The position numbers were made by a program, and so were the translations under genes. From Candidatus Aenigmatarchaeota archaeon (lineage in GTDB: Archaea; Aenigmatarchaeota; Aenigmatarchaeia; QMZS01): 64,000 nucleotides of DNA. This document shows positions 18,801 through 45,565 of the stretch, piece after piece. Location of the stretch: contig JAFGCN010000009.1 in the NCBI GenBank assembly GCA_016932615.1, positions 146,167 through 210,166 on the forward strand, written 5' to 3'. The stretch's first letter is position 1. Every line of letters starts with the position of its first letter. The notes beneath the pieces are model-generated. The model was not told the origin of the DNA and searched no databases. It was given only the letters and a program-made list of their open reading frames with translations.

Positions 18801-18835
18801 TTTCGTCCCTTGAAAGGGCCCTTGAAAAAGTATGA
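9899..18835 (+). CDS. Giant single-pass membrane protein. N-terminal signal anchor, ~2550-aa glycosylated ectodomain with beta-propeller-like repeats, TM helix, and a C-terminal cytoplasmic P-loop ATPase of the HerA/FtsK superfamily (DUF87-like).
   Basis: N-terminal anchor MAKSTTSVIAVFFMFLLAAVLEV. Repeated LWxY/VxxGSxD propeller-like units. TM LTVGLIVLVLALICLVLGTYLY followed by RYYRMWRKEKEKQQR (positive-inside). Walker A AAGATGSGKS (~nt 17895-17925) and Walker B ILVFDEVH (~nt 18270-18293), which are typical of HerA/DUF87/VirB4-type ATPases. Confidence 0.75.
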   Translation: MAKSTTSVIAVFFMFLLAAVLEVGLIYSFGGVQQSFTLDLNTSLLNYSLSRFSDASTTQEFDFQNESDYHAFYVSLPKNSTVSAFSLNLTGLITTVYIRDVVYLSGVEVGHMRGLSIGNVVGGLENEIVSGRSTVSQALPSLFVINGSSGSNIWNYSLSPVYEVGSTVVGNVTDSSGNEVVFGSSNKKVMLLSSSGSLLWEYETGNEVSSVAIDSLGYSTNYVVAGSKDEKVYVLNSTGGVLWNYSTNSSIASIAVGDLTSDEGREIAVGTGTRIVILNRTGSRVFEYNWAKSISALAVGNISDDAGDELVIGDMDYQVAAFSVSDSNLTLLWNYTAGAQVNSVSIGEAVTDFSGNEVVAGTHEPKVYAFSNNGTKIWEFVTQTFVFTVAIGNVTEDSGNEVGAGDGHLYIFNFDYFPTNLKLDIGNDSVADWNSSYVKLRSSEIANGTSVVSAINSYLQNNCSPDASGNCLVPMVFHSDFKGKLNLSALNVVYFYNTSSLFSKPFANVWSRTSGVSSGEQVGNRTYNLSFSGVPAENVSISYLAVDPNATRCDFNRTARAVTTVSGTKVCDISSTPLFFAANQSIDTPASTYFFWYEGMGYGIPIDIQNSTGYYSTGGAPENYNWAVNLSVNGTSEEFTNIILNWTVNYTGIKGEEFLKVMDASACDLTPNFTQDDCDSASPAYNFTKNCTNFNYTVCKKYLGTAMFFKWVQSALPASSQSIYVAGGSYNLRPNLTNMSVTPNSTLWGGNLTFSVYVNDTESDFVNVTLWVKNLTNWSRVASLITTGGLLEFNVSSNKSWVGNAEYLFEYYDYNSTAPEGIHFPANSTSGNLTVERHLAELVYDSFSQGNGTTLFRNSSTELVLFVNDTNLSEGVPFASCALWVGGMLSGTNLTNSSGYCRIALHPNQSFSPGQKNWIMGILSDPSYEDANSTGLDITLRGWIRPNVTNSENFSYYRGIASVFRAELLDEFGGIVSTDQYSCAFDLNATGIGSNNTLLGNCSVYYSAGCLGIDSAVGQKQLGVQIARTGGEDYYNISSASAGRTVILRDRLNLSIVSPEDQNYYVGEFVNLTAVVNDSCTVLSGVSLNWTLVRKSVLNVTFSDLSGQERQNYTVVLPGSLFSSGGYNLSDWRVNNTHLLFDGSEVPFSIYQWTTAFKTTENKSKIYMDDYSEIVFRVNLSAWQSKTYTLNLTWQEPVQYGNLTYNLFNADFGTGNFSDWSPSICNRIVGCNGEVSFDGNVSYANISANDGYTVLSQNLPGFNFSEQFYIRYKAWGDFNSTMYPGQFYILLGNYSCNLTSEIRALADGTGYVSLPENWTLSNCTGASISSANNVSIVLLDLGDGGGDPSNVNALIDYVCFGNSSGSCIDFDEGQSLARSLNTKKELGLASNYTFSGMDEVGRRKILAEATREYYLSATLGTLFNLTGFSKLQAFNVSSIYCTSDPLNGSSFVCMSNATVDLVAKVGNNFTEEPIYNHTIVFSNNSSSIGSNASNFAGRAYFGMTLGNASNYTFYANISSQPEIFYNSSNLSGMEIFILIDSGVTTGNITLNSTSAVVQSVALDSNYTLPLLWELNNTGLSGMYDIRVSTNNISGIAVSPVVCLPLASGMNCTRNVNVTVTYLTAPGNYTLVFNASWQNGDASRSNTTKGLTLAVETSKKVRFEEENATLNVPVTTTGAINLTLLNYGNINLSSVYFNLSGTDTEAVINWSSFSANYTNLSLGGSYNLTLQFQIPANATTREYWLNVTATIPGCTGNCSATLPFILNVTPLDWNIAPETNLSKVVGLKQELNKFGELEITNTLNSTLDFNLTITPNNGTSIEFLTLNRSIFQTTSQVTVGPVSSRVVEIFYNTSISPNTTGTYNYTLLLESNVANITPASRSLGLYFEVINFTVDIYSPTELSPAGQPDPVEANETLVIDVEAKLGATPLSNNISWNVSVGGQVCQNTSAPEYNTSTSRWILRCAYPDIPLNPIYNDLEVTGTYELLGVDLSDVEENAVIYKDVLEPWFSNVSASFVNMLSNLSEVSFEVNVTDNKNISSVWAVVTRPDGVNISLGAGNYSATPRSFGDFDSYKYTFTMHNPNLNGDYDITVYAIDTEAHQNSTTGWFDVFIPVQVWGNFTNSKGEAISANMSFYRSGYNQTLPYRMENKTLAGAPYNWTLHKRLYDVKLNMFGHEMVVAGADFNITQNDTQNPFLFDYFANKSSEDISNILLPDTANRQSILLAFALESDLNLTGANFSVRYGDALNAGSFSEDLLEVFVCEDWNYTARTCNSGEFSYLAGTSALSSSNPDISANVFNFSSSHLSAYAIAESSYPYKWGVAPDSPSTPPAASGSSSSSDSGEDSGPVVVCGNGVCELGENSDNCPEDCSKDFPLEVDTNLGDVRLFPGEGRQYWISLKNNFGKNLSVSLSLSENLLEFVSLDVDSLNVTAHEKKILNLSLNAPQNISVGTYGGYVVLMSGESKLSLPVTIRILELPAATFTVNVNMRSAQIAPDGKLEFNVQLTNLGEKELYPITLTYYVKDPQNNEVFRSNRTNITLQTTVLVSESFPMNLSEEGTYTLEVWANYYGKNIDMGVVTFDVLRPLFQSPLTVGLIVLVLALICLVLGTYLYRYYRMWRKEKEKQQRYLYPLDYNTIPKEGFNVGKFAARDNVFYYDPRDLSTHLIAAGATGSGKSVAASLFAEEALDKKIPVIVFDPTSQWTGFVKPCKDNNLLSRYPRFGMTEFDIKSYPGLIYDVETPTFNLDIKKFINPGEITVFCLGRLKPGEYDVAVNNIIATLFKESWEESTELKVILVFDEVHRLLEKYGGSGGYVALEKAAREFRKWGIGVIMCSQVLADFKEAIAGNVLTEIQLNTKSLTDIDKVKTKYGEKYAERIARMGVGAGLVQHPKYNNGKPFFIEFRPTKHNPHKITDEELALYKNYTERLDKLSAKIEEMKKNGVYTENYEIDYKLAVDKLKRGNFRMSEIYISSLERALEKV

Positions 18836-24760: not shown

Positions 24761-26416
24761 ATGAAAGGGGTTGCGGTTTCAGCCCAGCTTATGCTTATCC
24801 TGACGCTGGTCTTCCTGGGAACCATGATTCTTCTTGGAACCAGCACCAGCTCTACTCCAGTTTACTACAAAAATCTTGCAGAGAGCAAGTTTGCTGACCT
24901 TCTCATGAAGTATGAGCTCATAAAATCAAACATCAGGGATTCCCTTGAGGGAGAGTCGAGCCGGATGTTTTCTGCAATGGGCGATTATCCAATAGAGTGG
25001 TCCACAGTTGAAAGCGCTGCGCCTAGTGATGACGAGTGGTCCATCCTCTATAAGGAGAAGCTTTCAAGTGCCGCTCAGGGCTACCTTAACTCAGCGTCAA
25101 ACTCGGACTTCGAGTGGATAGAAATTTCGGAGAAGGAAAGCACAGTTACCTATGACTCTTCTGGCCCCAAGGTCGAATGGCACTATAAGTACAACATTAA
25201 TATTCAGAACGTGATTCCGGATGAGGATATAGCCAACAAGATAAACTCCGAGGAGGAGGTTTCAATAACCTATGATGATTTTCTGAATCTTGATGGCGCG
25301 TGGCACTGCGCAAAGGATTACTTTGCCAAATCTGCCTCCAGCGAAGGGGCTTTTTACTTTACTGAAATGTCCGACTACTTTTTAAACCAGGGCCTCGGGC
25401 AAAAGCTTAACCAGATAAAGCCGGATTCCTGCAGCGGCTTTAAGACCACCATGTCTGTTTTTAATGGAATTTCCTGCCCCGGTGGAACCTGCAGGCAGAG
25501 CCAAATGAAGCCCGTAGGGATAATCCTTCTAATAGAGCCATCCGGAAGCGGCAGGGGCGCTGTTTCGTTTATTCACAGGTATTCCAATTTCGCGGCGGGA
25601 AGCCCAAGCGCTTCCGGCGCTACAGGGCAGCCGTGCTCTCTTGGCTCCGAGTGCGGTACCCTGGACTGCGTGGGAGAGGTTTGCGGCAAGTGTCTGGAGG
25701 CATTTGAAAATTCGCTTTGCTCTCCTTCGGGCACTGGCCACCCCCCGGCAACTCACCGTTGCTACCGTGTTCTTTCCGGCTCGGGCAGCTATGAATACCG
25801 CTGCCTTCAGAACAAAGCATCCATTGGGCTTACGGACGGAACAAGGTGGTTTTTGAGCGGGCAGTCAATAAAGGTGAACTGCGCCCTGGAGGACGGGAGG
25901 TTTGAGGTCGGCGTCAGCGGCGCAACGTCAGACACAATTTCCGTTTCAAAAGTTTTGTTCAATGGAGTTGAGGTTAGCAGCGGAACGCAGAAAATAGAGC
26001 TTTGCGACACGGACGAAGTGCCTCCCGTGAACGGCCGGATTGAGGTTTACCTGGAGGAGGGAGGAGATGCCTACCGCGCTTTTGAGACGGGCGTGAGGTT
26101 TGCATTAAGTGAATGCGAAGATGAGGTTTCAAGCAAGCTTGGGGAGTATGTGTACAGCTTTGGCGAATCGGACTATGAAGAACTTCGCCGTGGAATAGAA
26201 ACGGCGGTGCGGGATGTTGCAAGGGGGGCTTCCTGCGAGGGATACAGGGTTTATGTGTCTGAAGTTATGTTTTCCTGCGGCTCTGATATAAGCGCCTGCT
26301 CCGGGACCACCACCTGGGACAGGGAGAAATATTCTCCTGTTACTGTGGAGTTTGAGGATGAAAGCACAGGCAATGTGGCGTTTCGGTCAACTTATATTAT
26401 CTCATATTCACCTTAG
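24761..26416 (+). CDS. Pilin-like or secreted Cys-rich protein. The ORF is open from 24674, but 24761 is the more plausible start.
   Basis: MKG followed by a hydrophobic helix (VAVSAQLMLILTLVFLGTMILLG) matches the archaeal class III signal pattern [K/R]G-hydrophobic. Many cysteines in the mature part. Convergent with the secretion ATPase gene. Confidence 0.5.
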   Translation: MKGVAVSAQLMLILTLVFLGTMILLGTSTSSTPVYYKNLAESKFADLLMKYELIKSNIRDSLEGESSRMFSAMGDYPIEWSTVESAAPSDDEWSILYKEKLSSAAQGYLNSASNSDFEWIEISEKESTVTYDSSGPKVEWHYKYNINIQNVIPDEDIANKINSEEEVSITYDDFLNLDGAWHCAKDYFAKSASSEGAFYFTEMSDYFLNQGLGQKLNQIKPDSCSGFKTTMSVFNGISCPGGTCRQSQMKPVGIILLIEPSGSGRGAVSFIHRYSNFAAGSPSASGATGQPCSLGSECGTLDCVGEVCGKCLEAFENSLCSPSGTGHPPATHRCYRVLSGSGSYEYRCLQNKASIGLTDGTRWFLSGQSIKVNCALEDGRFEVGVSGATSDTISVSKVLFNGVEVSSGTQKIELCDTDEVPPVNGRIEVYLEEGGDAYRAFETGVRFALSECEDEVSSKLGEYVYSFGESDYEELRRGIETAVRDVARGASCEGYRVYVSEVMFSCGSDISACSGTTTWDREKYSPVTVEFEDESTGNVAFRSTYIISYSP

Positions 26417-34107: not shown

Positions 34108-34824
34108 ATGCTATACCTGATTGGAGCGGGGCTGTGGGATGAGGGAGACATAGCCCTCAAAGGTCTTGAAGCTGCCCGGAAGTGCAGCAGGGTTTATTTT
34201 GAGAGGTACACAAGCTTGTGGAAGGGAGACCTTGAAAAGATTGGGCTGAAGGCAGAGGATTTTGCCAGGCCTGACATGGAGGATAATATGTCAAAACTCA
34301 TTGGCGAGGCAAAGGAAAAAGATGTATGTGTTCTCGTGCCGGGTGACCCCCTGATTGCCACGACGCACTCGTCAATCATTACTGAAGCCAGAAAGGAGGG
34401 CGTTAAGGTGGAAGTAATCCACTCAAGCTCCATATTTTCAGCCCTTGGCGAGACGGGCCTGCAGGTCTACAAGTTTGGCAGGACTGCCACGATTCCCCAC
34501 TACGAGACCGATGCGCCATATAAGATTTTGGAGCAGAACCTGTGGATAGGGGCGCACTCTCTCTTTTTGCTGGATATTCAGGGCCAGGAGCTTATGAAGT
34601 GCTCGGAAGGGCTAAAGAAGCTTCTTGAGATGGAGGGGCGGGGCAAAAAGGGCATAATCTCCGAGGACACGGAAGTGCTTGTCTTTTGCAGGGCAGGAAG
34701 CCCCGAAAAAGCGCTGAAGTGGGGCAAAGTCCGGGATTTTCTTGATTTTGACTGCACATTATGCGTGATTATTGTCCCGGGGCCGCTTCATTTTGCTGAG
34801 AGGGAGTACTTAGAGCAGCTTTAA
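34108..34824 (+). CDS. dph5: Diphthine synthase, the EF-2 diphthamide biosynthesis methyltransferase (tetrapyrrole-methylase fold).
   Basis: MLYLIGAGLWDEGDIALKGLEAARKCSRVYFERYTS is the characteristic N-terminus of diphthine synthases. Confidence 0.8.
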   Translation: MLYLIGAGLWDEGDIALKGLEAARKCSRVYFERYTSLWKGDLEKIGLKAEDFARPDMEDNMSKLIGEAKEKDVCVLVPGDPLIATTHSSIITEARKEGVKVEVIHSSSIFSALGETGLQVYKFGRTATIPHYETDAPYKILEQNLWIGAHSLFLLDIQGQELMKCSEGLKKLLEMEGRGKKGIISEDTEVLVFCRAGSPEKALKWGKVRDFLDFDCTLCVIIVPGPLHFAEREYLEQL

Positions 34825-34861: not shown

Positions 34862-35126
34862 GCCCCTGTAGTCTAGCTCGGTCCAGGATATCGCCCTTTC
34901 GAGCAGGCCCTTCTTTGAAAAGGAGGCCTGGCGCACCCAAGAAAACATATTTCAAGGGATGGGAAAGGTTTGAGGCCGAACAGGCCGATGACAAGGAGAC
35001 AGGCGGAGACCCGGGGTCATTCCTTCTTTTAGAAAAAGAAGGTCTGACAACTCCAAGAAAAGGAGGTTACCGCTTCGCGAAATTCAGACGTGAAGTGGGT
35101 AGGGAATTCAAATCCCGGCAGGGGCA
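34862..35126 (+). tRNA. tRNA-Glu(UUC) with two long introns: ~99 nt after position 37 of the anticodon loop (34902..35000), and ~91 nt in the T-arm between the T-stem and T-loop (35016..35106).
   Basis: Acceptor GCCCCTG (34862-34868) pairs with CAGGGGC (35119-35125). Anticodon stem TCGCC/GGCGG with loop CTTTCG|..|A. T-stem CCGGG (35011-15) pairs with CCCGG (35114-18), with the canonical T-loop TTCAAAT. Discriminator A. The pairings were found by eye only. Confidence 0.6.
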
Positions 35127-35167
35127 AATTTCAAATTCAGTCTTTTAAACTAAATAGTGATTTATAG

Positions 35168-35359
35168 ATGGAAGGAACAGTAAAATTCTTCAATGTAATG
35201 AAGAACTTTGGGTTCATAAGCGGTGAAGACGGAAAGGACTACTTTGTTCACTCAAGCGCGTTGAAAGAAGGCACTATGCTTGGCGAGGGAGACAAGGTTT
35301 CTTTTGAGCCGGTACGAGGCGACAAAGGAATGAAGGCAGAAAAAGTTCAGAAATTATAG
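35168..35359 (+). CDS. csp: Cold-shock domain protein (CspA family).
   Basis: GTVKFFNVMKNFGFISGEDGKDYFVHSSAL...EGDKVSFEPVRGDKGMKA aligns with the CspA RNP1/RNP2 motifs (KGFGFI, VFVHF). Confidence 0.75.
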   Translation: MEGTVKFFNVMKNFGFISGEDGKDYFVHSSALKEGTMLGEGDKVSFEPVRGDKGMKAEKVQKL

Positions 35360-35570
35360 TTCTAGTGCGGAAATATAGTTTTGAGACAAATGAGTTTAGT
35401 TTTGGTTTTTGCAGGTTTTTTGAAGTATTGGGTTTTGGCTCGTCCCTGAAGGACGGGGTTTTGTCAGCCCGTGGGCAAATGGTTGCCTGTCCAGTTTGCA
35501 TTATCTGCCTTGAATTTTCGACAAAAAACGACATAATGCGCGTTTAAATACCCTCGGGCACGGTCTGATT

Positions 35571-36065
35571 ATGGAAGAAAAAACTTCTGGAGGGGATTTT
35601 CCGGTTCCGGCAGCTGAAAGGCCAGAGAGCCCGAAGTACGCCTCCCAGAGTTCGGATGCTGAAGAACTTATGAAACAGATTATCGCTCTGAAGAATGAAA
35701 TGGTTGACTACTGGGCTGACCGGAGGGGGGACGCTTCGGACGTAATCGGGAAGTTTTTTGGTGAAAGAGAGTACGGGTATGTTTTTACGGACAGAAGGGG
35801 ATCACCTTTGGGCTATTACACCATAAAGGTCGATTCAACAGGCAGGATCGTGGGCTACCGGGACGGGATTTCCGAAAATTCGGTCATGGTAGTTGAGGTT
35901 CCTTACGACCTTACGCGGGATATTGTCGAGGACATTTATGAGGATTCCAGATTCCCGAGGGATTGGATTTCGGCGACGATGAAGAAGGCTCCAAAGGTCG
36001 TTTCGGGGCTCAGGAAGGGCAAGGTAAAGGTTCGATCCGCTTCCCACTACAAGGGCAGAATCTAG
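35571..36065 (+). CDS. Hypothetical protein.
   Basis: ORF with plausible coding composition and no recognisable motif. Confidence 0.4.
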   Translation: MEEKTSGGDFPVPAAERPESPKYASQSSDAEELMKQIIALKNEMVDYWADRRGDASDVIGKFFGEREYGYVFTDRRGSPLGYYTIKVDSTGRIVGYRDGISENSVMVVEVPYDLTRDIVEDIYEDSRFPRDWISATMKKAPKVVSGLRKGKVKVRSASHYKGRI

Positions 36066-36104
36066 GTTGGGGGTCTGGTTTGTTAAATAGCAGCGAGTAT
36101 TATT

Positions 36105-36788
36105 ATGGCTAGGAGAATTCCGGCAATTTCTGCTAAAACGGCATTTCCTGCAATACTTGCCCTTGTTTTTATCCTGGCGGCATCCTTTTGCATCCAGATG
36201 TACAACGAAAATGCGCCTTTTCCAGGCATTTCGAAAACCCCTTCGGGCACAGATGACCTGAAAAATGGCCTTGGCAATGGAGAAACTTCTTCCAGCGGCC
36301 AGAATTCTGGAGAATCGGGTGAAGAAGGCGATGAAGATGATGAAGAGGAAGAAGAAGGAGATGATAGTAGAGGCACTGGGGGAGCTCCCGGCGGAGGCGG
36401 AGGAGCTTCGGGTGATGGCGGCGGAGGTGGCGGCGCACCTTCAGCAATAATAAACTTTACTAATATCGAAGACCCGGACCCGAAAATCAGGGTAATTTCC
36501 TCCTACAAGTGCGGCTCTGACATATGTTTTCAGGTAAAGGCCGCAGACGACAACCTTGTGGATATTTCCATGTCGGGGCTTGAAACCTATATAAACAGCG
36601 AACCGGTGTCCCCTATCGACTGGGAGGGTGGTGTAAGCGGCTCTTCGTGCATTTCAACGGAATTTCTTGAGCCGGGGCAGAGCTGTTTTGGCAAGATACT
36701 TTCCGCAGAGTGCCTTTCAACGGACATCTTCAGGGTTATTATTCCACTGGGCTTCGAGGCCTGGTCATATATATCCGAATGCGGCTGA
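36105..36788 (+). CDS. Secreted or membrane-anchored protein with acidic and Gly-rich low-complexity regions.
   Basis: N-terminal TM/signal, then GEEGDEDDEEEEEGDD and GGGGGASGDGGGGGGAP, then a C-terminal Cys-containing domain. Confidence 0.4.
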   Translation: MARRIPAISAKTAFPAILALVFILAASFCIQMYNENAPFPGISKTPSGTDDLKNGLGNGETSSSGQNSGESGEEGDEDDEEEEEGDDSRGTGGAPGGGGGASGDGGGGGGAPSAIINFTNIEDPDPKIRVISSYKCGSDICFQVKAADDNLVDISMSGLETYINSEPVSPIDWEGGVSGSSCISTEFLEPGQSCFGKILSAECLSTDIFRVIIPLGFEAWSYISECG

Positions 36789-36833
36789 TTTTGCCCAAAA
36801 AACTAGAATTAAGAACTTTTCAATTTAAGTTAT

Positions 36834-37108
36834 GCCGAGGTGGCGGAGCGGTTAACGCGCCTGGCTTGAGTGAAGCTTTTCTTTCCAAAGAAAAGCCCCA
36901 TGCGCAAAAGAAAGGATTATTCGAAAAAGCCCCGGGCTTTTTCATAAATCCGGCGCACTTAAAGCCTAGGAAACCAGGTTCCCACAAGGAGCGCAGGTAA
37001 AGACTTTCTTTTAGAAAAAGAAAGTCCTTAACGTCAAAGAAAACCAAATTCGCATATCACCGCGAAGTTGGCTGATTGGCGGTCTGCAATCGAATCCTGC
37101 CCTCGGCG
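36834..37108 (+). tRNA. tRNA-Ser(UGA)-like type II tRNA with two long introns: ~102 nt at the anticodon-loop 37/38 site (36871..36972) and ~91 nt in the T-arm/T-loop (36999..37089).
   Basis: Acceptor GCCGAGG (36834-40) pairs with CCTCGGC (37101-07). D-arm GCG/AGCGGTTAA/CGC. Anticodon stem CCTGG (36860-64) pairs with CCAGG (36974-78), with loop CTTGAG|..|A. Variable arm TTCCCACAAGGAGC. T-stem GCAGG (36993-97) pairs with CCTGC (37096-37100), with the T-loop T|..|TCGAAT. Discriminator G. Confidence 0.55.
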
Positions 37109-39347: not shown

Positions 39348-39446
39348 GCCCTAGTAGCTCAGCTGGTTGAAGCTTGCCTTCAGGCTTCCGGCAAAGAGCG
39401 CGGGTTTCGTAAACCCGAGGTCGGGGGTTCGATCCCCCCCTAGGGC
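39348..39446 (+). tRNA. tRNA-Thr(CGU)-like gene, 99 nt. The canonical cloverleaf is interrupted by a ~25-nt insertion (non-canonical intron) inside the D-loop.
   Basis: Acceptor GCCCTAG/CTAGGGC. D-stem GCTC...GAGC separated by 35 nt instead of ~10. Anticodon arm CGGGT-TTCGTAA-ACCCG (U33, anticodon CGT, A37). Variable loop AGGTC. T-arm GGGGG-TTCGATC-CCCCC. A Leu(CAG) type-II fold was considered and is less consistent. Confidence 0.55.
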
Positions 39447-39556
39447 TATAATGTTTATCATGAGGACATTTCACCCGTAATGCTCCCGTTATGCAATCAT
39501 CTTCGAAAGTCCGAAATGATATATAACGTTTGAGGCAGTTATGATTATAGGATAAA

Positions 39557-42500
39557 ATGTCCAAAATATTTTTCGATGGGGGCAGTATTTCAAAAATTTT
39601 CCTTGCCTTCCTATTTGCGTTTTCACTTAATATTGCCTCGGTATCTGCGGCTTCTATATCAGGCCAATTTGAAGTGTCTGACACTATTACAAACCTAGGC
39701 ACTGTGGACTCAAGCAGGATTTCAAATATAATTTTGGACCGGGGGAGCGATGTGGTCTGGAGGGTATACCCTACGGGATACTGGAACTTGGGAGAATATC
39801 ACTTCTATGCAAAACTGGACAAGGTTTCAGGTAAGATTTACCTCCTTGCAAATTCTTCAAGCGAAGGCTCAGCCCTGGGTGTCATGATGCCTTCCATAAA
39901 TCTGCAGGATCGTTTTGGCCTTAGCCAGACCCCAGACTACACGCATTTTTGCGCTCAATATGATTCCACAAAGACTCTTTCTTATGATGTGCTTGCTCAG
40001 ACGGTTACAAGCCTAGCCTCCAGTGGTGCAATAGGGTCCGGAGCAACTCTATCAAAGGCACCGGTTTACAAAAGCAACTTCACGGACGGAGTTTATGTGC
40101 TCGGGTACTACATTTCTGCTTCTGAATTCGATGCTACCTCAAACAGCTTCCACAACTGGCCTTGGGGCACTGGAAGTGACGCATGCAAGTACTCAATTCT
40201 CTTTCCGATATGCGAATATAGCGAGGGTTCTGTAAGTGTGACCTTCAATATCGATAGCAGCCCAAGAAACTACCTGGTGTATGGTAGCCTATACAATGAC
40301 AACAATGAGAATACTTATTACCGGTATAATGGCGTCACATGGTTGCAGCGAAGCTACTGGGGACTGACCAATCAGGTAAGGTATGGCTCTTCTTCGGGCT
40401 ATCCCCAGCAAATAGAATTGTATGCAAGCAAGACCTGGTCAACAGTACACCCTTCAACTTGGATAGTGCTCGATACTGATTCAGTCAGTGTAACTGGAAC
40501 TCTGGCTGGGCAGGGCCCAACCAGTGTCAATGAAGCTGAAGCCCCAGACGTGCTTTACAAATTTAGCGTCACGAAAGCACCTCTTGATTGGCTTGAGGGC
40601 TCGGTGAGGAGAACAATAATAATAAACAACAGCGAGAGTTCCGAGGATCTTGCAAATTATCCTGTGTTGCTGCAGGTTCCTTATGATTTTTTCATGAGGC
40701 AGGATTATGGCGACCTTAGGTTTACTGACCTTGGCGAAAGCCCGTTAAATTACTGGATAGAGTCTTACAACGTAAGCTCTGCCGTTGTGTGGGTAAAGAT
40801 TCCATCAATTCCTGCTGGTGGAGAGACATCCATTTATATGTATTATGGTAACTCGACTCTCACGAACATTGGCAATGGCAACTTGGTTTTCCCTTTCTTT
40901 GAGGATTTCAATGACGGAAGTCTGGATCCATACTGGACCAAAGTCAATTCAGAGGCCAATATTTTTGAGAATAATGGGTATCTGGAGACTCCGGAATGCG
41001 GGGTTCCGGGAGAGGCAGACTGCAAATATGGATATGCTTTTGTTTACATGAACGCCGCTTCCAATGGAATCAGTATTAATCAGCCATTCAGGATAAAGCT
41101 GAAGACCTGGAACAAGGAGGACAGCGCTGGCGGTGAAGGGGCAGGAACTTTCATGTTCCGGGAAGTGCCTTACGTTGGAATTAACCCTAATGCAGTCTAT
41201 TTTTTGCATGGTGACCGGAATAATTATCCGGGGTTCTATGAAGGCCATGATGGGCCACTGAGTTTTGGAATTTACTCGCCGATGCAGGATAGGTGGATTT
41301 CTGAAGAATTCCTATATGACGGGAGTGGAATGGGTCTTTGGTTTGACGGGACAAAAAGAAGCACCACTGCATGGGCTTCTGCTGAGGGGTACGTTTCTCT
41401 TGGAAATTCAATAGGCAGCGATTCCTATTCGACAGACAACAATAAATGGGACGACCTATTCATGATGCAGGTGGCATCAAAAGAGCCAGTCGTGAAGCTT
41501 GGAGATATTGAAACTGGCGATGGAACAGAGGAACCCATTCAGAACATAATTTCCGCAAATATTTTGCTTTTTGATGAGGAATATAACCCACTATATTCCA
41601 GTATTGGTCAAGAAGAATCCACCGCATATTTGACTTTGAAAAAACCGCATTACTTAGATATCTTAGTCAATGGTACCGTTTCTACAGATTCGCAGATTAG
41701 TGTAGAACTTTATCAGGGGAGCACGCTTAAATTTTCGGAAGACTTGGACACAATAATACAGCAGGAGGGTTCATATGCCTATATAAAATCGGGTGAGATT
41801 TTCTCTGTTCCGGAAAGCGCAGGCATTGGCTCTGGATATAAATTAGTGGTTAAGCTGGGAGATTATGTATTGAATCAGGAGGTTTATCTTACTCCTTTTG
41901 AGGCTGTGCCGATTGATGTTTTTGGCCAGGAATATCCTGTGGCTGGAGAGGTCAGGTATTATGATATAAAGCCCTATGAGTTGAGCCATAACGGGAATGA
42001 AGTGGTGATTGCCTACCCGATTTTTGAGCAGCAATATTTCGAAAGCCTTAGTGATGAAGGATTTGGTGTTTCCGACCCGGAAAGAGTTAAAGCCTTGGTG
42101 CAAAAGCTGTCCGTGCTTGAGTTAGTGGGTTTGACGGAAGTTGCGGCAAAATATCCAAATGCCCGGTTTGTGGTTTTTAACGGGTTGAAAGGAGATGCTG
42201 AAGTAATCTCTCAGGTAGAAGGAAACATAAAGTCCGCAAGAGCATCAAACAAAAAGCCGCTCATAGTTGGTGCGATACCCCATGCAACCCAAACCTACAG
42301 CAATATAGTCACTACTAAGGCATACCGATCTTCATATATGAGTTATGCTTTGGCTTCTTCCATTAATGTTCTCAGAACCTGGGGAGGCGAAGACAGAGAA
42401 ACTTTTGTTTCAAGGCATTATCGGGGTGAAGAATACTTCCTTGCTTTAAATTCGACTGGAAAGTATTCAAAAGAAAGCTTTGGTGACCGGACCGAATCTC

Positions 42501-45500
42501 AGCCGGCGATGCTTGTGGCAATAGACGAAAATCCACTGCTTCAGGTGTCTCCTGCGATTGGCAATGACGCTAGAGATGAGGCTGGAAAGGATAATTATGA
42601 CTATTACCGAATTGGGACCTTAATTCCTCTAGGACATACCTATTACTTAGGTCTTGAAGCAGGAAAGTTCCCCCTTGCAGAGTTTAGCCTGAATCCTTCG
42701 ATGGCAGGATTAAAGTTTGGAAGAACCATTTTTAACTTCGGTCTTGAATTTGGAATAAATGCCGAGAGGACAGAAGACCGTGGGAAGATTTATGCCTATT
42801 TGGATATTGGTGCCATAATTACGGGTTTCCATGAAGAGTGGGACCTTTGGAAGGGAGCTATTAATGTGAATACGATTGACCAGGATGTCCAGCAGGGGGT
42901 TGACGATATTTGCGATATAGATACAGTTGTTCTTGGAAAAGTTGGAGATATTGAAATTGAAAATACCAACCTTAGAGGCATAATGACTTCTTTCAAGGAC
43001 ATTGTACTCTTCCTGTTTGTCCCAGAACCTGTGATTGCCAGGAATGAATTCCTGAGGTATGGATTTGAGCCTAGCAGTGTTCATACCTTGCTGGCAGATA
43101 CAACAAAGACGATGGCAACGCATAATCAGCCTGTTTCAGACACGGTTGTCTATGAGGCAGACAATTATCCTTCCAAGATGAGCCTGAATAATGCTGCAAT
43201 GAATCTTGCTGCCTTTGTCATAGACCTTGTGGAGTTTGGTGAGGGTGTGCTTCCGGTTGAGATTGAGCCAAGCCTCGAGGGTAAGATGCATATGGAGAAC
43301 TATCTCGGGTCTTCAGATAGCATCAATTCAATAATAGTTTCTGAAGACGTTGCTCTCACCTTGAGAGGTCTTGCCGTAGATGTTATTGAAGATCCTTGGG
43401 CAGATGTTCCTAGTGACATTAAAGATGTCGCTGGATACCTTAAAGATGAAACTTTTAAGTCCGTTGATGTCTTTGAGGAGATAACTCTTTCCGGATACGA
43501 GTATATCTCGGTAAGTATGGAGTATTTGGAATATAGCAGGTATGAAGATTTCGCAAGTGGGTTAGTGGAAGAATACCTCTACTATGAGTCCCTTGAGATG
43601 GAGTATATGGAGGTCTGGACCTCAAAAGTCAAGGTCAAGACAGGAACCATAGATTACGAGAAAATCAAGAAATACCTGAAATGGGTTAAGATTATTGCTG
43701 CAGGACTCGATGCATGGCTTCAGTACGAAGAGGCACAGAAGGTTGCAGGGTTCAATTCCAACCAGCTTTACTATATGGGTGACCCATACCTTACCGGTTA
43801 TGATGACCCGGTTTACAGCTTTTCGGTGGACGCTTTGCCTGAGCAGGTGCAAATACACATAAGGTCTGAGCCAAGGTTGATGGAGGTTATGGACACAAGT
43901 ATGATTTATCCAAGCGTGACCGAACTCGAGATACCAGATATGACTGCAAAAGTGCTGGTAGAAGATTATACTCCCTACACAGGAGCCCCTCAGACGCCAA
44001 GTTTCATAATCTCAATATTTCACCCCAGAAATCAGGAGATCTACAATATTTCCTATGGGCTCTTAAGTCCCCAGAATTTTGAAAATGTAGACCTTGCAAT
44101 GGGGGCTCTGGTTGTCGGTGAGGAGAGCCTTCCGGGCTTGATACCAGAATATGAATACTATCCGAAAGAAAGCCTGGTTTCCAGCACGGAAGATGTTGCA
44201 AATTATGCCCATACTGTGATCATGCTGTTCCCAACTAAGTATTACTCAGACAAGCACTTGGACTACTACAAGGATGTCTGGCTTAACTTCAGTGTTATGA
44301 CTCGTTCTACAGAGCTAAATACTGAGCTTCAAGTGTATCCAAATGTAGTGGTCACAGAAAGAGGTTCTGAGACTAAGGTTACTCTGCGTCTAGTCAATGA
44401 TATACTTTCCGGTGAAAATACCGCAGTAAATGTTACCTTTAGGGTGCCCGAAGGGATACTGCTTGGGGGAGGCGACCTAGAGAATGTGGTGCTTGGCAAT
44501 ACCCCCTCTGATTACAGCAGGGACTTTTTGTATGAAGTAAGCATTCCCGCAAGCACGGAGCTAGGGGCGTATTATATAAATATGAACCTTTCTGGATATG
44601 AAGGTTCGGAAAGGATTTACAGGGACTATGCGCTTCCAGTTATTGTTACTCGCAGGGACTTGGTGGACAATAATCTGCTTGAGTGGACAGTTCCTCCCAG
44701 GATGCAGATGGGAGTCGAGAATAAAGTTTCAGTGAAGGTAAGAAACGACGGAGAAATTAAAAATGTAGCCCTTCCAGTGAGACTTTTTCTAAACGATGAG
44801 CTAATTGATACACAAACAATAGGCATTATTGGTCCTGGCGAAGTTGTTGAACTGAACTTTACCGTTGTTCCTGAGCTAACTGGTCTAAGCAACCTTACCA
44901 TTGCAGTGGTTTCAGCGCCCAACGAGTTTGAGCTTGAAAACAACATTAAGTCGGCATTGGTTGAAGTGTCTGAGGATATATGCCCTCCAATGATAACTCT
45001 CGCCACACCTTCAGATGGAGCCGTTTACTTCCTCAACCAGCAGGTCCTTGCCGATTACGAATGCACCGACGCTCTCAGCGGAGTCACCTCATGCACGGGA
45101 GCGGTTGAACTCGGAAGCCTAATTGACACTGCAAGCCTTGGCATTAAGTCCTTTACGGTTGCTTCAGCAGATAATGCGGGTAACACTGCAGAAAAAACTG
45201 TCTCCTACAGCGTCCAGTATTCTTACAGCGGAATCCTCAGGCCAATTGACCCCGATGGCACAAGTGTCTTCAAGCTCGGAAGCACGGTTCCGGTAAAGTT
45301 TAAGCTAACTGACGCTAGTGGGAACTTTGTTAAGACTGCGGTTGCAAAAATTTACCTGTCTAAAATAAGCAATGGCGTTATGGGAACAGAGGTTGATGCT
45401 GTGTCTACAAGCCAGGCTTCGACGGGAAACCTGTTTAGGTATGATGAAACTGCTAACCAATACGTGTTTAATCTTGCTACAAAATCTATGACGGTTGGAA

Positions 45501-45565
45501 CCTGGAAGATAAGAATTTTGCTGGATGATGGCACTTCCCGGTATGTAACCCTGGGCCTCAGGTAA
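39557..45565 (+). CDS. Giant secreted surface protein (2002 aa) with a signal peptide. It shares a jelly-roll-type module with the first giant protein and has Big-like domains near the C-terminus. No C-terminal TM.
   Basis: Signal MSKIF...LAFLFAFSLNIASVSA. The module IYMYYGNSTLTN...FPFFEDFNDGSLDPYW parallels VYMYYNNSGVST...FLLFDDFNDASLDTDKW in the 1..5327 protein. Confidence 0.7.
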   Translation: MSKIFFDGGSISKIFLAFLFAFSLNIASVSAASISGQFEVSDTITNLGTVDSSRISNIILDRGSDVVWRVYPTGYWNLGEYHFYAKLDKVSGKIYLLANSSSEGSALGVMMPSINLQDRFGLSQTPDYTHFCAQYDSTKTLSYDVLAQTVTSLASSGAIGSGATLSKAPVYKSNFTDGVYVLGYYISASEFDATSNSFHNWPWGTGSDACKYSILFPICEYSEGSVSVTFNIDSSPRNYLVYGSLYNDNNENTYYRYNGVTWLQRSYWGLTNQVRYGSSSGYPQQIELYASKTWSTVHPSTWIVLDTDSVSVTGTLAGQGPTSVNEAEAPDVLYKFSVTKAPLDWLEGSVRRTIIINNSESSEDLANYPVLLQVPYDFFMRQDYGDLRFTDLGESPLNYWIESYNVSSAVVWVKIPSIPAGGETSIYMYYGNSTLTNIGNGNLVFPFFEDFNDGSLDPYWTKVNSEANIFENNGYLETPECGVPGEADCKYGYAFVYMNAASNGISINQPFRIKLKTWNKEDSAGGEGAGTFMFREVPYVGINPNAVYFLHGDRNNYPGFYEGHDGPLSFGIYSPMQDRWISEEFLYDGSGMGLWFDGTKRSTTAWASAEGYVSLGNSIGSDSYSTDNNKWDDLFMMQVASKEPVVKLGDIETGDGTEEPIQNIISANILLFDEEYNPLYSSIGQEESTAYLTLKKPHYLDILVNGTVSTDSQISVELYQGSTLKFSEDLDTIIQQEGSYAYIKSGEIFSVPESAGIGSGYKLVVKLGDYVLNQEVYLTPFEAVPIDVFGQEYPVAGEVRYYDIKPYELSHNGNEVVIAYPIFEQQYFESLSDEGFGVSDPERVKALVQKLSVLELVGLTEVAAKYPNARFVVFNGLKGDAEVISQVEGNIKSARASNKKPLIVGAIPHATQTYSNIVTTKAYRSSYMSYALASSINVLRTWGGEDRETFVSRHYRGEEYFLALNSTGKYSKESFGDRTESQPAMLVAIDENPLLQVSPAIGNDARDEAGKDNYDYYRIGTLIPLGHTYYLGLEAGKFPLAEFSLNPSMAGLKFGRTIFNFGLEFGINAERTEDRGKIYAYLDIGAIITGFHEEWDLWKGAINVNTIDQDVQQGVDDICDIDTVVLGKVGDIEIENTNLRGIMTSFKDIVLFLFVPEPVIARNEFLRYGFEPSSVHTLLADTTKTMATHNQPVSDTVVYEADNYPSKMSLNNAAMNLAAFVIDLVEFGEGVLPVEIEPSLEGKMHMENYLGSSDSINSIIVSEDVALTLRGLAVDVIEDPWADVPSDIKDVAGYLKDETFKSVDVFEEITLSGYEYISVSMEYLEYSRYEDFASGLVEEYLYYESLEMEYMEVWTSKVKVKTGTIDYEKIKKYLKWVKIIAAGLDAWLQYEEAQKVAGFNSNQLYYMGDPYLTGYDDPVYSFSVDALPEQVQIHIRSEPRLMEVMDTSMIYPSVTELEIPDMTAKVLVEDYTPYTGAPQTPSFIISIFHPRNQEIYNISYGLLSPQNFENVDLAMGALVVGEESLPGLIPEYEYYPKESLVSSTEDVANYAHTVIMLFPTKYYSDKHLDYYKDVWLNFSVMTRSTELNTELQVYPNVVVTERGSETKVTLRLVNDILSGENTAVNVTFRVPEGILLGGGDLENVVLGNTPSDYSRDFLYEVSIPASTELGAYYINMNLSGYEGSERIYRDYALPVIVTRRDLVDNNLLEWTVPPRMQMGVENKVSVKVRNDGEIKNVALPVRLFLNDELIDTQTIGIIGPGEVVELNFTVVPELTGLSNLTIAVVSAPNEFELENNIKSALVEVSEDICPPMITLATPSDGAVYFLNQQVLADYECTDALSGVTSCTGAVELGSLIDTASLGIKSFTVASADNAGNTAEKTVSYSVQYSYSGILRPIDPDGTSVFKLGSTVPVKFKLTDASGNFVKTAVAKIYLSKISNGVMGTEVDAVSTSQASTGNLFRYDETANQYVFNLATKSMTVGTWKIRILLDDGTSRYVTLGLR

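Follow-up and report, generated by a model that had tools for sequence, protein, structure and literature searches.

Two tRNA genes in a 64-kb stretch of an aenigmarchaeal genome carry four long introns that are best explained as copies of one lineage-specific family. The stretch, referred to here as the window, is the whole 64,000 nucleotides (nt) between positions 146,167 and 210,166 of contig JAFGCN010000009.1. The genes encode tRNA-Glu(UUC) and tRNA-Ser(UGA), and introns 1 and 2 of each are labelled GluI1, GluI2, SerI1 and SerI2. Related loci from metagenomes and metagenome-assembled genomes (MAGs) that were compared with the window are labelled L002 to L033. In the preferred reading the four insertions are introns of the bulge-helix-bulge (BHB) type and the family has multiplied within a clade of Aenigmarchaeota, with splicing, formation of an RNA triple helix (triplex), spread between genes and a guide function as proposed steps. 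This reading as a whole was given a probability of about 75%. The steps that would follow transcription (splicing, circularisation, triplex formation and methylation) are proposed from the sequence. Proliferation of BHB introns is itself known. The novelty lies in the host lineage, in introns that are long and modular, in a conserved core that predicts a triplex, and in an add-on with a kink-turn (K-turn) and a guide-like stretch.

When the introns were removed in silico ARAGORN called full-length cloverleaf tRNA-Glu(ttc) and tRNA-Ser(tga), the latter with a long variable arm. The unspliced genes were detected by neither ARAGORN nor Rfam in the whole 64-kb window, and the only tRNA that these programs reported in the raw sequence was a tRNA-Thr at about 39.4 kb. 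At E<=1 no Rfam family matched any of the intron regions; elsewhere in the window the matches were the tRNA-Thr and a sub-threshold sR3. Standard finders thus leave two of the three window tRNAs invisible and the third was mis-bounded by ARAGORN, a point of relevance to the 'incomplete tRNA sets' reported for DPANN genomes. DPANN lineages are noted to have many disrupted tRNA genes and incomplete annotation (PMC5829648). The host is a DPANN archaeon of the Aenigmarchaeota. The diphthine synthase encoded in the window matches, at 100% identity, a protein from a 221-kb contig of an NCBI 'Candidatus Aenigmarchaeota' MAG. An identical locus was found in an independent Logan assembly, showing that the genes are no assembly artefact.

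Relatedness and range of the introns

The 21-nt hairpin CYTTCTTTTAGAAAAAGAARG occurs exactly at 35022-35042 in GluI2 and at 37004-37024 in SerI2 and nowhere else in the 64 kb, where 0.01 matches were expected from a shuffle control. Local alignment was scored against 500 dinucleotide shuffles. GluI2 and SerI2 aligned with z=9.6 and GluI1 and GluI2 with z=5.8, and no shuffle was as good in either case (0/500). By the same test the plain-sequence similarity of SerI1 to the other three introns was not significant (z<=1.4).

A covariance model, R1, was built from 12 well-aligned seeds out of 19; a MAFFT alignment of all 19 mis-registered several stems. GluI1 and SerI1 were not among the seeds. The model covers an 11-bp hairpin, a linker and a purine tract, and it was searched against the window and 17 related loci (200 kb). 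Its matches in the window were solely the 5' ends of the four introns, each starting no more than one base from the first nucleotide of the intron (Table 1). GluI1 is the most diverged of the four copies and its membership is argued for mainly by its orthologues, which are 69-80% identical to it and scored 42.5 bits in L029 (not a seed), 20 bits in L009 and 63 bits in L005 (a seed). On these comparisons all four introns share one 5' module of about 45 nt.

The order of the module is the same throughout. After the bulge of the 5' splice site come an all-pyrimidine arm, a loop, an all-purine arm, a linker of 9-12 nt and the purine tract. Linkers fall into subtypes, among them CUYAACGUC, UCUGACAACYCC and GCCGACACCCCC. 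At the 3' end of the intron four nucleotides are complementary to the upstream exon and form the central helix of the splice motif. Introns of the family are modular and 75-140 nt long, and their 3' domains differ: the T-arm introns have a second hairpin with an AUAUCAC loop, SerI1 has a UUCGAAAAAGC.. hairpin and GluI1 has a K-turn. Hairpin 2 of GluI2 is homologous to a hairpin in GluI2 of L005 and to that of SerI2 in the window, and the stem of SerI2 hairpin 2 recurs with its (A)UAUCAC loop in introns of L005, L016, L020 and L010. The 3' domain of SerI1 (36913-36955) is a GCGC.../...GCGC helix around GGAUU-AUUCGA-AAAAGCCC-loop-GGGCUUUUU-CAUA-AAUCC and is common to SerI1 of L010 and the T-loop intron of the L023 tRNA-Lys.

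The initial annotation had described the four long introns, over a span that runs from the first base of GluI1 to the last base of SerI2 (34902 to 37089), as related to each other. This was confirmed by the alignment scores and by R1 matches at all four 5' ends, that of GluI1 being weak. The nearly identical hairpin that it had reported in the T-arm introns, both of 91 nt, proved to be the exact 21-nt motif. All of the blocks listed there as shared (CAAAGAAAACC/CCAAGAAAAGG, CGCGAA, GAAGTTGG/GAAGTGGG and GCGCA..AAGAAA) were recovered at equivalent positions, where they map to the purine tract, the hairpin 2 stem and the linker. Both the shuffle controls and this positional equivalence contradict the possibility, raised with the claim, that the likeness is an artefact of low-complexity A/T runs.

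Relatives were reached via diphthine synthase homologues (72-58% identity) in JGI, ENA and NCBI assemblies, in which the exons and intron positions are conserved. The order of diphthine synthase (dph5), tRNA-Glu and a cold-shock-domain protein is kept across the clade, and L002, L005, L010 and L029 have this synteny together with the tRNA-Glu gene and both of its long introns. In the more distant L007 and L009 tRNA-Glu also has two introns, one of them short: that of the anticodon in L007 and that of the T-loop in L009. The Glu anticodon intron of L009 opens with an unmistakable copy of the window T-arm module (GUCAUUCCUUCUUC...GAAGGUCUGACAAC), followed by the K-turn. The tRNA-Ser orthologues in L002, L010 and L029 have two to three introns.

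Over the 17 related loci R1 gave 29 matches at E<5e-5. A tRNA exon lies directly upstream in all of the full-length match contexts inspected (37/37). The core 21-mer of subtype B, AAAGTCCTYAACGTCAAARRA, was found at 16 metagenome loci, every one inside a multi-intron tRNA gene (16/16). A scan for generic pyrimidine/purine hairpins gave many chance matches in coding DNA and became discriminating once the linker and tract were required. Whether other tRNAs carry the family had been posed as a check with the first claim, and the module was found in at least 13 tRNA genes of related contigs. It lies at the 5' end of the intron, with up to three introns per gene, at positions in the D-loop, at 37/38, 53/54 and 54/55 and at about 58-60. 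One 437-nt tRNA gene in L021 holds three R1 module matches. Hosts confirmed by ARAGORN after BHB-guided splicing were Glu(UUC), Ser(UGA), Trp(CCA), Ala(GGC), Val(CAC) and Arg(UCU). Those read by eye were Ala(CGC), Lys(CUU), Thr(UGU), Asn(GUU), Ser(GGA), Ser(GCU) and two class-II (Leu-like) tRNAs; ARAGORN made no full-length call for the spliced tRNA-Ala(CGC) of L017, the anticodon of which was read by eye only.

The family has a visible boundary. In L033 (50% diphthine synthase identity) tRNA-Glu has three introns, including the K-turn, and the intron positions are kept; R1 found no module in these tRNA-Glu introns. When GTDB genomes were scanned with the subtype-A 21-mer, the only true locus was L015, which belongs to the same species as L002; four further matches were bacterial and due to chance. 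Based on these two results the family as defined is confined to a subclade of the Aenigmarchaeota.

Covariation in the 5' module and its spread between genes

Statistics for the hairpin were taken from the 29 best R1 matches, which form 25 distinct rows. Ninety-four percent of the cells were paired, and slid controls fell to 55-69%. Double-sided changes were present in 6 of the 11 pairs (34 cells), and the observed score was reached by none of 500 shuffles. With one exception the changes are between U-A and C-G, which leaves pyrimidines in the 5' arm and purines in the 3' arm. At stem positions 7-15 nearly all pairs are U-A or C-G and have their pyrimidine on the 5' side. The minimum-free-energy (MFE) folds of the T-arm introns scored z=-5.56 (GluI2) and z=-3.71 (SerI2) against shuffles, with 0/200 shuffles as good for each; the values for GluI1 and SerI1 were z=-2.65 and z=-2.54.

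The purine tract is the purine arm read backwards, that is, its mirror. The tract as a Watson-Crick partner of the pyrimidine arm, or as a direct repeat of the purine arm, was considered and rejected, as all asymmetric cases follow the mirror order. Among 26 distinct members the mirror identity was 0.967, against 0.778 when arms and tracts were cross-paired and 0.780 for a direct repeat. None of 20000 permutations was as good, and when permutations were confined to the same linker subtype 5 of 20000 were. The first A-runs of arm and tract are equal in length in 24 of the 26 members: (2,2) in four, (3,3) in 13, (4,4) in six and (5,5) in one. Purine arms and their tracts include AAGAAAAG with AAAAGAAG, AAAAGAAAG with AAAGAAAA, AAAGAAAAG with AAAAGAAA, GAAAGAAGG with AAGAAAG, AAGAAAAAG with AAAAAGAAA, and, in the window, AAAAGAAGG with AAGAAAA (GluI2) and AAGAAAAGC with AAAAGAAAGG (SerI1). 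At least six different arm patterns occur and they vary inside each linker subtype, which argues for repeated covariation rather than one inherited state. The mirror match extends over 6 of 7 positions in GluI1 and 7 of 7 in SerI1. In GluI2, where the mirror rule was counted as holding, the A-runs are 2 and 5 in the mirrored arm and 2 and 4 in the tract. In the MFE folds the tract is unpaired in SerI1 and SerI2 and lies in a hairpin loop in GluI2, and in GluI1 four of its seven bases are paired.

To our knowledge the only physical arrangement that demands a mirror purine strand is the antiparallel purine-motif triplex (A·A-U, G·G-C), and the same logic applies in H-DNA. The tract follows the purine arm after the 9-12-nt linker, which makes an antiparallel fold-back geometrically possible, and the order of the parts is that of the classic fold-back triplex design. 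The three-way covariation fits a fold-back pyrimidine:purine·purine (Y:R·R) purine-motif triplex, which would form in the RNA. Folded back in this way the module would give a compact, nuclease-resistant core beside the splice site. Such a core could help the BHB to form or stabilise the excised, probably circular, intron. A bolder version, which is tentative and on balance doubtful, is that the module is a natural intramolecular all-RNA purine-motif triplex and the stabilising or recognition core of a self-propagating protein-spliced intron family. It would be the first natural RNA triplex of its class, possibly letting the excised circular intron persist, re-integrate or template conversion. 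Like the RNA triple helices of ENE/MALAT1, telomerase and riboswitch pseudoknots, and like H-DNA, the module has a homopurine/homopyrimidine helix and a third strand dictated by the purine strand. In contrast to the known RNA triplexes it has a purine tract as its predicted third strand, which would run antiparallel (A·A-U, G·G-C). The natural RNA triplexes of which we know are of the pyrimidine motif (U·A-U, parallel), and we know of no natural all-RNA purine-motif example. The three-way covariation therefore predicts a class of RNA structure, the purine-motif triplex, whose natural existence is disputed.

Comparison of orthologous sites points to movement of the family. At the Glu T-arm site subtype A is found in the window and in L005 (82% module identity), and subtype B in L002, L010 and L029 (54-64% identical to the window). 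Between L005 and L029 the tRNA-Glu exons do not differ and the anticodon introns are 79% identical, yet the T-arm introns are of subtype A and subtype B, respectively (65% module identity). These two T-arm introns keep similar 3' ends (...GAAUUGGCAUGGGUA vs ...GAAUUUGGCUAGGGUA). In L029 the T-arm intron has a 5' module with 96% identity to those of the L019 tRNA-Ala intron and of L002 GluI2. The swap with retained 3' ends and the identity between L029 and L019 suggest that the 5' module alone can move or be converted. Subtype A was found in the anticodon loop of the L002 tRNA-Ser and in the T-arm of the window tRNA-Glu. The tRNA-Ser gene has two introns in the window and three in L002 and L010, in which the extra intron is in the D-loop; that of L010 is a family member (R1 41 bits). 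Extra sequence nested in the hairpin of L010 SerI2 and L007 GluI2 is a sign of turnover. Taken from these comparisons, the family proliferates or converts among tRNA genes. Transfer or conversion between tRNA genes, either of the whole intron or of just the 5' module, would generate new copies, and only insertions able to form a BHB would survive.

Spread of a mobile family and a conserved embedded RNA element had been offered in the initial annotation as alternatives. Both are borne out and they are not exclusive. Spread is indicated by the host range of at least 13 tRNA genes, the several positions and the different subtypes at orthologous sites, and a conserved RNA element by the compensatory pair changes and the third-strand covariation. 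The description of homologous introns at matching positions holds for the pairs in the window and is too narrow for the family, as subtype A is in the Glu T-arm in one case and in the Ser anticodon loop of a relative in the other.

Thermoproteales introns are mostly a few tens of nucleotides long. 'Intron transposition' among their tRNA genes was described by Fujishima et al. 2010 (Mol Biol Evol 27:2233), as summarised in PMC4090602. According to that summary the Thermoproteales case likewise has near-identical introns in non-orthologous tRNA genes, multiple introns per gene and gain or transfer after speciation. The present family differs in its aenigmarchaeal host, in the greater length of its introns (75-140 nt) and in the covarying hairpin and mirror tract fixed beside the 5' splice site; in addition its 3' modules are interchangeable, some copies hold nested insertions, and the 5' module can be swapped on its own. 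By these descriptions it is likened to the Thermoproteales introns as an analogue, not a member. A literature search found no description of such intron spread in Aenigmarchaeota or other DPANN archaea. With Thermoproteales as the only well-described case of transposition in archaeal tRNA intron gain, the family would be a second, independent case, in DPANN. Its long modular copies, with swapping, nesting and replacement at orthologous sites, could make the mechanism tractable by comparative genomics and circular RNA sequencing.

The introns could instead be purely selfish and recently duplicated, the shared module being inherited without a structural or functional role. The 96% identity of 5' modules between copies in different genes would agree with this, as would the rapid turnover seen in subtype swapping and nested insertions and the state of L033, which keeps the intron positions and not the module. 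Neutral descent does not, however, produce coordinated three-way changes. Compensatory changes between U-A and C-G keep the hairpin paired, and the tract tracks the purine arm in mirror register over at least six arm patterns and within each linker subtype. A purely selfish origin was considered unlikely.

A second explanation places the action of the mirror repeat in DNA. In this view polymerases would stall at H-DNA, or at a fold-back triplex formed by single-stranded DNA (on the non-template strand or in a replication intermediate), and the recombination or gene conversion so provoked would spread the intron or module. The mirror rule is the exact sequence requirement of H-DNA, purine-motif triplexes are well established for DNA and contested for RNA (PMC7583470), and swapping of the module alone between genes suggests recombination hot spots. 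H-DNA itself is the subject of a review (PMC11667243). H-DNA, however, needs the mirror repeat alone. Here the pyrimidine arm of the same strand covaries too, as a single-stranded fold-back would need, and RNA is the obvious candidate for that strand. The orientation of the module relative to transcription is constant and it always abuts the 5' splice site, which argues for a constraint at the RNA level. The DNA explanation was rated quite improbable, but with the conflicting evidence on purine-motif triplexes in RNA it is a serious alternative.

Splice motifs and the guide-like element of GluI1

Standard BHB geometry consists of an outer helix (h), a 4-bp central helix (H), two 3-nt bulges that hold the splice sites, and an inner helix (h'). 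H was scored between exon bases -6 to -3 and the four intron bases that precede the last two of the intron. The motifs of all four introns are given in Table 1; those in the anticodon loops are near-canonical or canonical-type and those in the T-arms are relaxed. A textbook H-bulge-h' arrangement is present at 53/54 in the tRNA-Ala(GGC) of L019 (CGUG-GG/U-GAAGAC...GUCUUC-CACG-AU/U, with slashes at the splice sites), as read from the sequence and in agreement with the ARAGORN call. Subtype-B introns often end in GUCUUC plus four exon-complementary bases, which gives the same arrangement. The four insertions are accordingly classed as archaeal BHB tRNA introns of the protein-spliced type, splicing itself being presumed from the motifs.

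The pre-tRNA would be cut at the bulges by the splicing endonuclease and sealed by RtcB. The relaxed T-arm motifs would need an endonuclease of broad specificity, which is presumed for efficient cleavage. Broad-specificity endonucleases that act on relaxed BHBs are of the (alpha-beta)2, epsilon2 and loop-bearing DPANN alpha4 types (PMC5829648, PMC3239211), and such enzymes have been reported from several DPANN lineages (PMC5829648). Relaxed-BHB introns of those systems and the present ones alike have non-canonical positions (here 53/54, 54/55 and the D-loop) and motifs cut down to the central helix and bulges. For the present introns no endonuclease was found in the 30 of 45 window open reading frames (ORFs) scanned.

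The K-turn of GluI1 was examined in an alignment of seven tRNA-Glu orthologues and the tRNA-Trp(CCA) intron of L024 (eight sequences). All four pairs of the C-stem show compensatory changes and the stem is 100% paired; neither the covariation score nor the count of paired cells was reached by any of 500 shuffles. The UGA and AUGA beside the C-stem are invariant, and the D'-like box is UUGA in seven of the eight rows and AUGA in L007. In GluI1 the sequence pattern of a K-turn is present: a C-stem, a 3-nt GAU bulge and tandem GA/GA with invariant GA dinucleotides. The order of a D'-like xUGA followed by a C'-like AUGA is that of the internal motif in archaeal C/D RNAs. The stretch upstream follows the host tRNA in the same register, with GGAAAGG against CCUUUC in Glu and UGGAGC against GCUCCA in Trp. 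The pairing is 6 bp with nt 31-36, and the fifth nucleotide upstream of the D'-like box faces wobble nt 34 in both hosts.

Box C/D guides are about 10-12 nt long upstream of D or D', and the methylated nucleotide lies opposite the fifth position. The GluI1 element is well supported, by its covariation and sequence pattern, as a predicted L7Ae-binding K-turn. A role in guiding 2'-O-methylation of nt 34 (Nm34) is plausible but unproven. In such a role the K-turn of tRNA-Glu, and that of the relative's tRNA-Trp, would bind L7Ae, and the 6-nt complementarity would set nt 34 at position N+5 for 2'-O-methylation before splicing. In Euryarchaeota the pre-tRNA-Trp intron guides 2'-O-methylation of C34 and U39 (Clouet d'Orval et al. 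2001; Singh et al. 2004; as cited in PMC11408192). GluI1 is like that guide in being an anticodon-loop intron with a K-turn and complementarity to its own anticodon loop, with N+5 at nt 34, and the tRNA-Trp(CCA) intron of L024 shares this. It differs in having only an internal D'/C'-type K-turn with a closed C-stem, no second guide and a pairing of 6 bp. Its host, tRNA-Glu(UUC), is not a known host, and the element is an add-on in a family whose other members lack the K-turn. Intron-guided wobble 2'-O-methylation may thus reach beyond tRNA-Trp. An H/ACA reading of GluI1 was rejected, as it has no lower stem, pocket or ACA arrangement, and a full C/D reading was rejected for want of terminal boxes.

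The introns as a whole might be conserved because they encode box C/D guide small RNAs (sRNAs), as does the euryarchaeal tRNA-Trp intron with its C34 and U39 targets (as cited in PMC11408192). The covarying D'/C'-type K-turn of GluI1, with a host-specific stretch that puts nt 34 at N+5, and the same arrangement in the tRNA-Trp(CCA) of L024 speak for this. The initial annotation had held that the introns do not resemble C/D-box sRNAs. That stands insofar as no terminal RUGAUGA/CUGA pair was found in any of the four introns, no Rfam C/D family matched them at E<=1, and no K-turn was found in GluI2, SerI1 or SerI2 or in most family members; it does not stand for GluI1 with its D'/C'-like K-turn. 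With a complementarity of only 6 bp, a guide function would explain one 3' module and not the shared 5' module, and as an account of the family it was judged very unlikely.

Several points weigh against the preferred reading of a single multiplied BHB intron family with triplex and guide steps. GluI1 matches R1 only weakly (E=0.15). The central helix of GluI2 is paired at only three of four positions and both T-arm introns are without flanking helices. A Pfam scan of 30 of the 45 window ORFs found no EndA, L7Ae, Nop5, fibrillarin or RtcB. The pyrimidine arm of many subtype-B members has an alternative partner in a purine tract at the 3' end of the intron, with which it could form, in L020, a closing helix of 12 bp, so that the hairpin or triplex may be only one conformer and conformational switching possible. 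The guide-like pairing of GluI1 is short and comes without terminal boxes, and for methylation to be efficient and specific classical C/D ribonucleoproteins require both K-turns. Experimental support for all-RNA purine-motif triplexes is poor, and a review notes evidence both ways (PMC7583470).

Chance likeness of A/T-rich low-complexity runs, or pseudogenes or assembly artefacts, is suggested by motifs that are low-complexity purine/pyrimidine runs and by the lack of significant plain-sequence similarity of SerI1 to the others, and is refuted by the shuffle controls (0.01 motif matches expected; z=9.6 and 5.8), by covariance E-values down to 4e-15, by the identical locus in the independent Logan assembly and by the conservation of exons and intron positions in the JGI, ENA and NCBI assemblies of relatives.

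Feature coordinates and further observations

Table 1. Coordinates and composition of the intron-bearing tRNA genes, their modules and splice motifs, and neighbouring features of the window. Slashes within bulges mark splice sites.
Feature	Positions	Strand	Details
tRNA-Glu(UUC) gene	34862-35126	+	exons 34862-34901, 35001-35015, 35107-35126
GluI1	34902-35000	+	99 nt, position 37/38
GluI1, R1 match	34902-34945		18.3 bits, E=0.15
GluI1 module	34906-34945	+	hairpin GGCCCUUCUUU-G-AAAAGGAGGCC (34906-34928), linker UGGCGCACCC, tract AAGAAAA (34939-34945)
GluI1 K-turn/guide-like module	34961-34998	+	from alignment of orthologues
GluI1 guide-like stretch	34961-34969		GGGAAAGGU, complementary to tRNA nt 31-36
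GluI1 D'-like box	34970-34973		UUGA
GluI1 C-stem and loop	34974-34986		GGCC, loop GAACA, GGCC
GluI1 bulge	34987-34991		GAU + GA
GluI1 spacer to H(b)	34992-34994		CAA
GluI1 H(b)	34995-34998		GGAG, intron strand of central BHB helix
GluI1 BHB			position 37/38; h 5 bp (anticodon stem); H CUUU with GGAG, 4 of 4; bulges CG/A and AC/A; near-canonical
GluI2	35016-35106	+	91 nt, T-arm, position 53/54
GluI2, R1 match	35017-35062		45.2 bits, E=2.5e-8
GluI2 module, subtype A	35017-35063	+	hairpin UCA-UU-CCUUCUUUU-AGA-AAAAGAAGG-UC-UGA (core 35022-35042), linker UCUGACAACUCC, purine tract AAGAAAA(GG) (35055-35063)
GluI2 hairpin 2	35073-35095	+	CUUCGCG-AAAUUCAGA-CGUGAAG (MFE fold); holds the CGCGAA and GAAGTGGG blocks
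GluI2 BHB			position 53/54; h 2 bp; H CCCG with AGGG, 3 of 4; bulges GG/G and AA/U; relaxed
tRNA-Ser(UGA) gene	36834-37108	+	exons 36834-36870, 36973-36998, 37090-37108
SerI1	36871-36972	+	102 nt, position 37/38
SerI1, R1 match	36871-36915		27.7 bits, E=6.5e-4; nhmmer E=0.0076
SerI1 module	36871-36915	+	hairpin GCUUUUCUU-UCCA-AAGAAAAGC (36875-36896), linker CCCAUGCGC, tract AAAAGAAAGG (36906-36915)
SerI1 BHB			position 37/38; h 6 bp; H CUUG with UAGG, 4 of 4; bulges AG/U and AA/A; canonical-type
SerI2	36999-37089	+	91 nt, T-loop, position 54/55
SerI2, R1 match	36998-37043		72.3 bits, E=3.9e-15
SerI2 module, subtype B	36998-37043	+	hairpin GACUUUCUUUU-AGA-AAAAGAAAGUC (37002-37026), linker CUUAACGUC, tract AAAGAAAA (37036-37043)
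SerI2 hairpin 2	37044-37071	+	CCAAAUUCGC-AUAUCACC-GCGAAGUUGG (MFE fold); holds the CGCGAA and GAAGTTGG blocks
SerI2 BHB			position 54/55; h none; H GCAG with CUGC, 4 of 4; bulges GU/A and AA/U; relaxed
Diphthine synthase (dph5)	34108-34824		neighbour of tRNA-Glu
Cold-shock-domain protein	35168-35359		63 aa
tRNA-Thr(CGU)	39348-39447		small D-loop intron, about 39369-39393
sR3-like match	25268-25311		19.9 bits (gathering threshold 41), E=0.85
Giant ORF	105-5327		1740 aa
Giant ORF	9899-18835		2978 aa
Giant ORF	39557-45565		2002 aa

Further structure was seen within the intron family. The consensus of the SerI1-type 3' domain is GGAUU-(A)UUCGA-AAAAGC..loop..GCUUUUU-(C/U)(A/C)UA(A/U)-AAUCC, with GA on one strand of the internal loop only. 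This domain may be a K-turn variant and so a third interchangeable intron module. Extra sequence of 45-90 nt lies inside the pyrimidine/purine hairpin at L010 5170-5261, L007 ~6990-7120 and L016 ~6125-6230 and in the T-arm intron of L017 (minus strand); in SerI2 of L010 the insertion reads GAAAGAA[CCTGC...GCAGG]AGTCC. Either nested introns or secondary insertions could account for this extra sequence. A second short repeat, GAGGCRCCGTTYG...CGAACGAGYGTC, is present in intron 2 of the L016 tRNA-Arg, intron 2 of the L007 tRNA-Glu and the 3' flank of the L020 tRNA-Ala, and may be another small mobile or structured element. Short D-loop introns (about 33-40 nt) at L002 7768-7802 and in the L023 tRNA-Lys have small pyrimidine/purine hairpins (CCUC..GAGG and AUCCCUUU..AAAGGGAU) and lack a mirror tract. 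These introns may be related to the family as eroded or minimal forms.

The tRNA-Thr(CGU) of the window has an intron of its own, which is 25 nt long by reading; Rfam, which finds the gene in full, shows a 29-nt insertion. ARAGORN reports a truncated gene at 39376-39447. The intron reads G-AAGC-UUGCCUUCAG-GCUU-CCGG-CA, with a central helix CUGG/CCGG and an inner helix of 4 bp. It has no R1 match, though its GAAGC start resembles that of subtype B (GAAGAC).

The cold-shock-domain protein is encoded between the two intron-rich tRNA genes, and its domain was assigned by Pfam in the identical Logan locus. The weak Rfam match to the C/D sRNA family sR3 is probably due to chance. Large surface proteins are common in DPANN genomes. 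One of the three giant ORFs of the window begins directly after tRNA-Thr, and all three are guessed to encode proteins of this kind.

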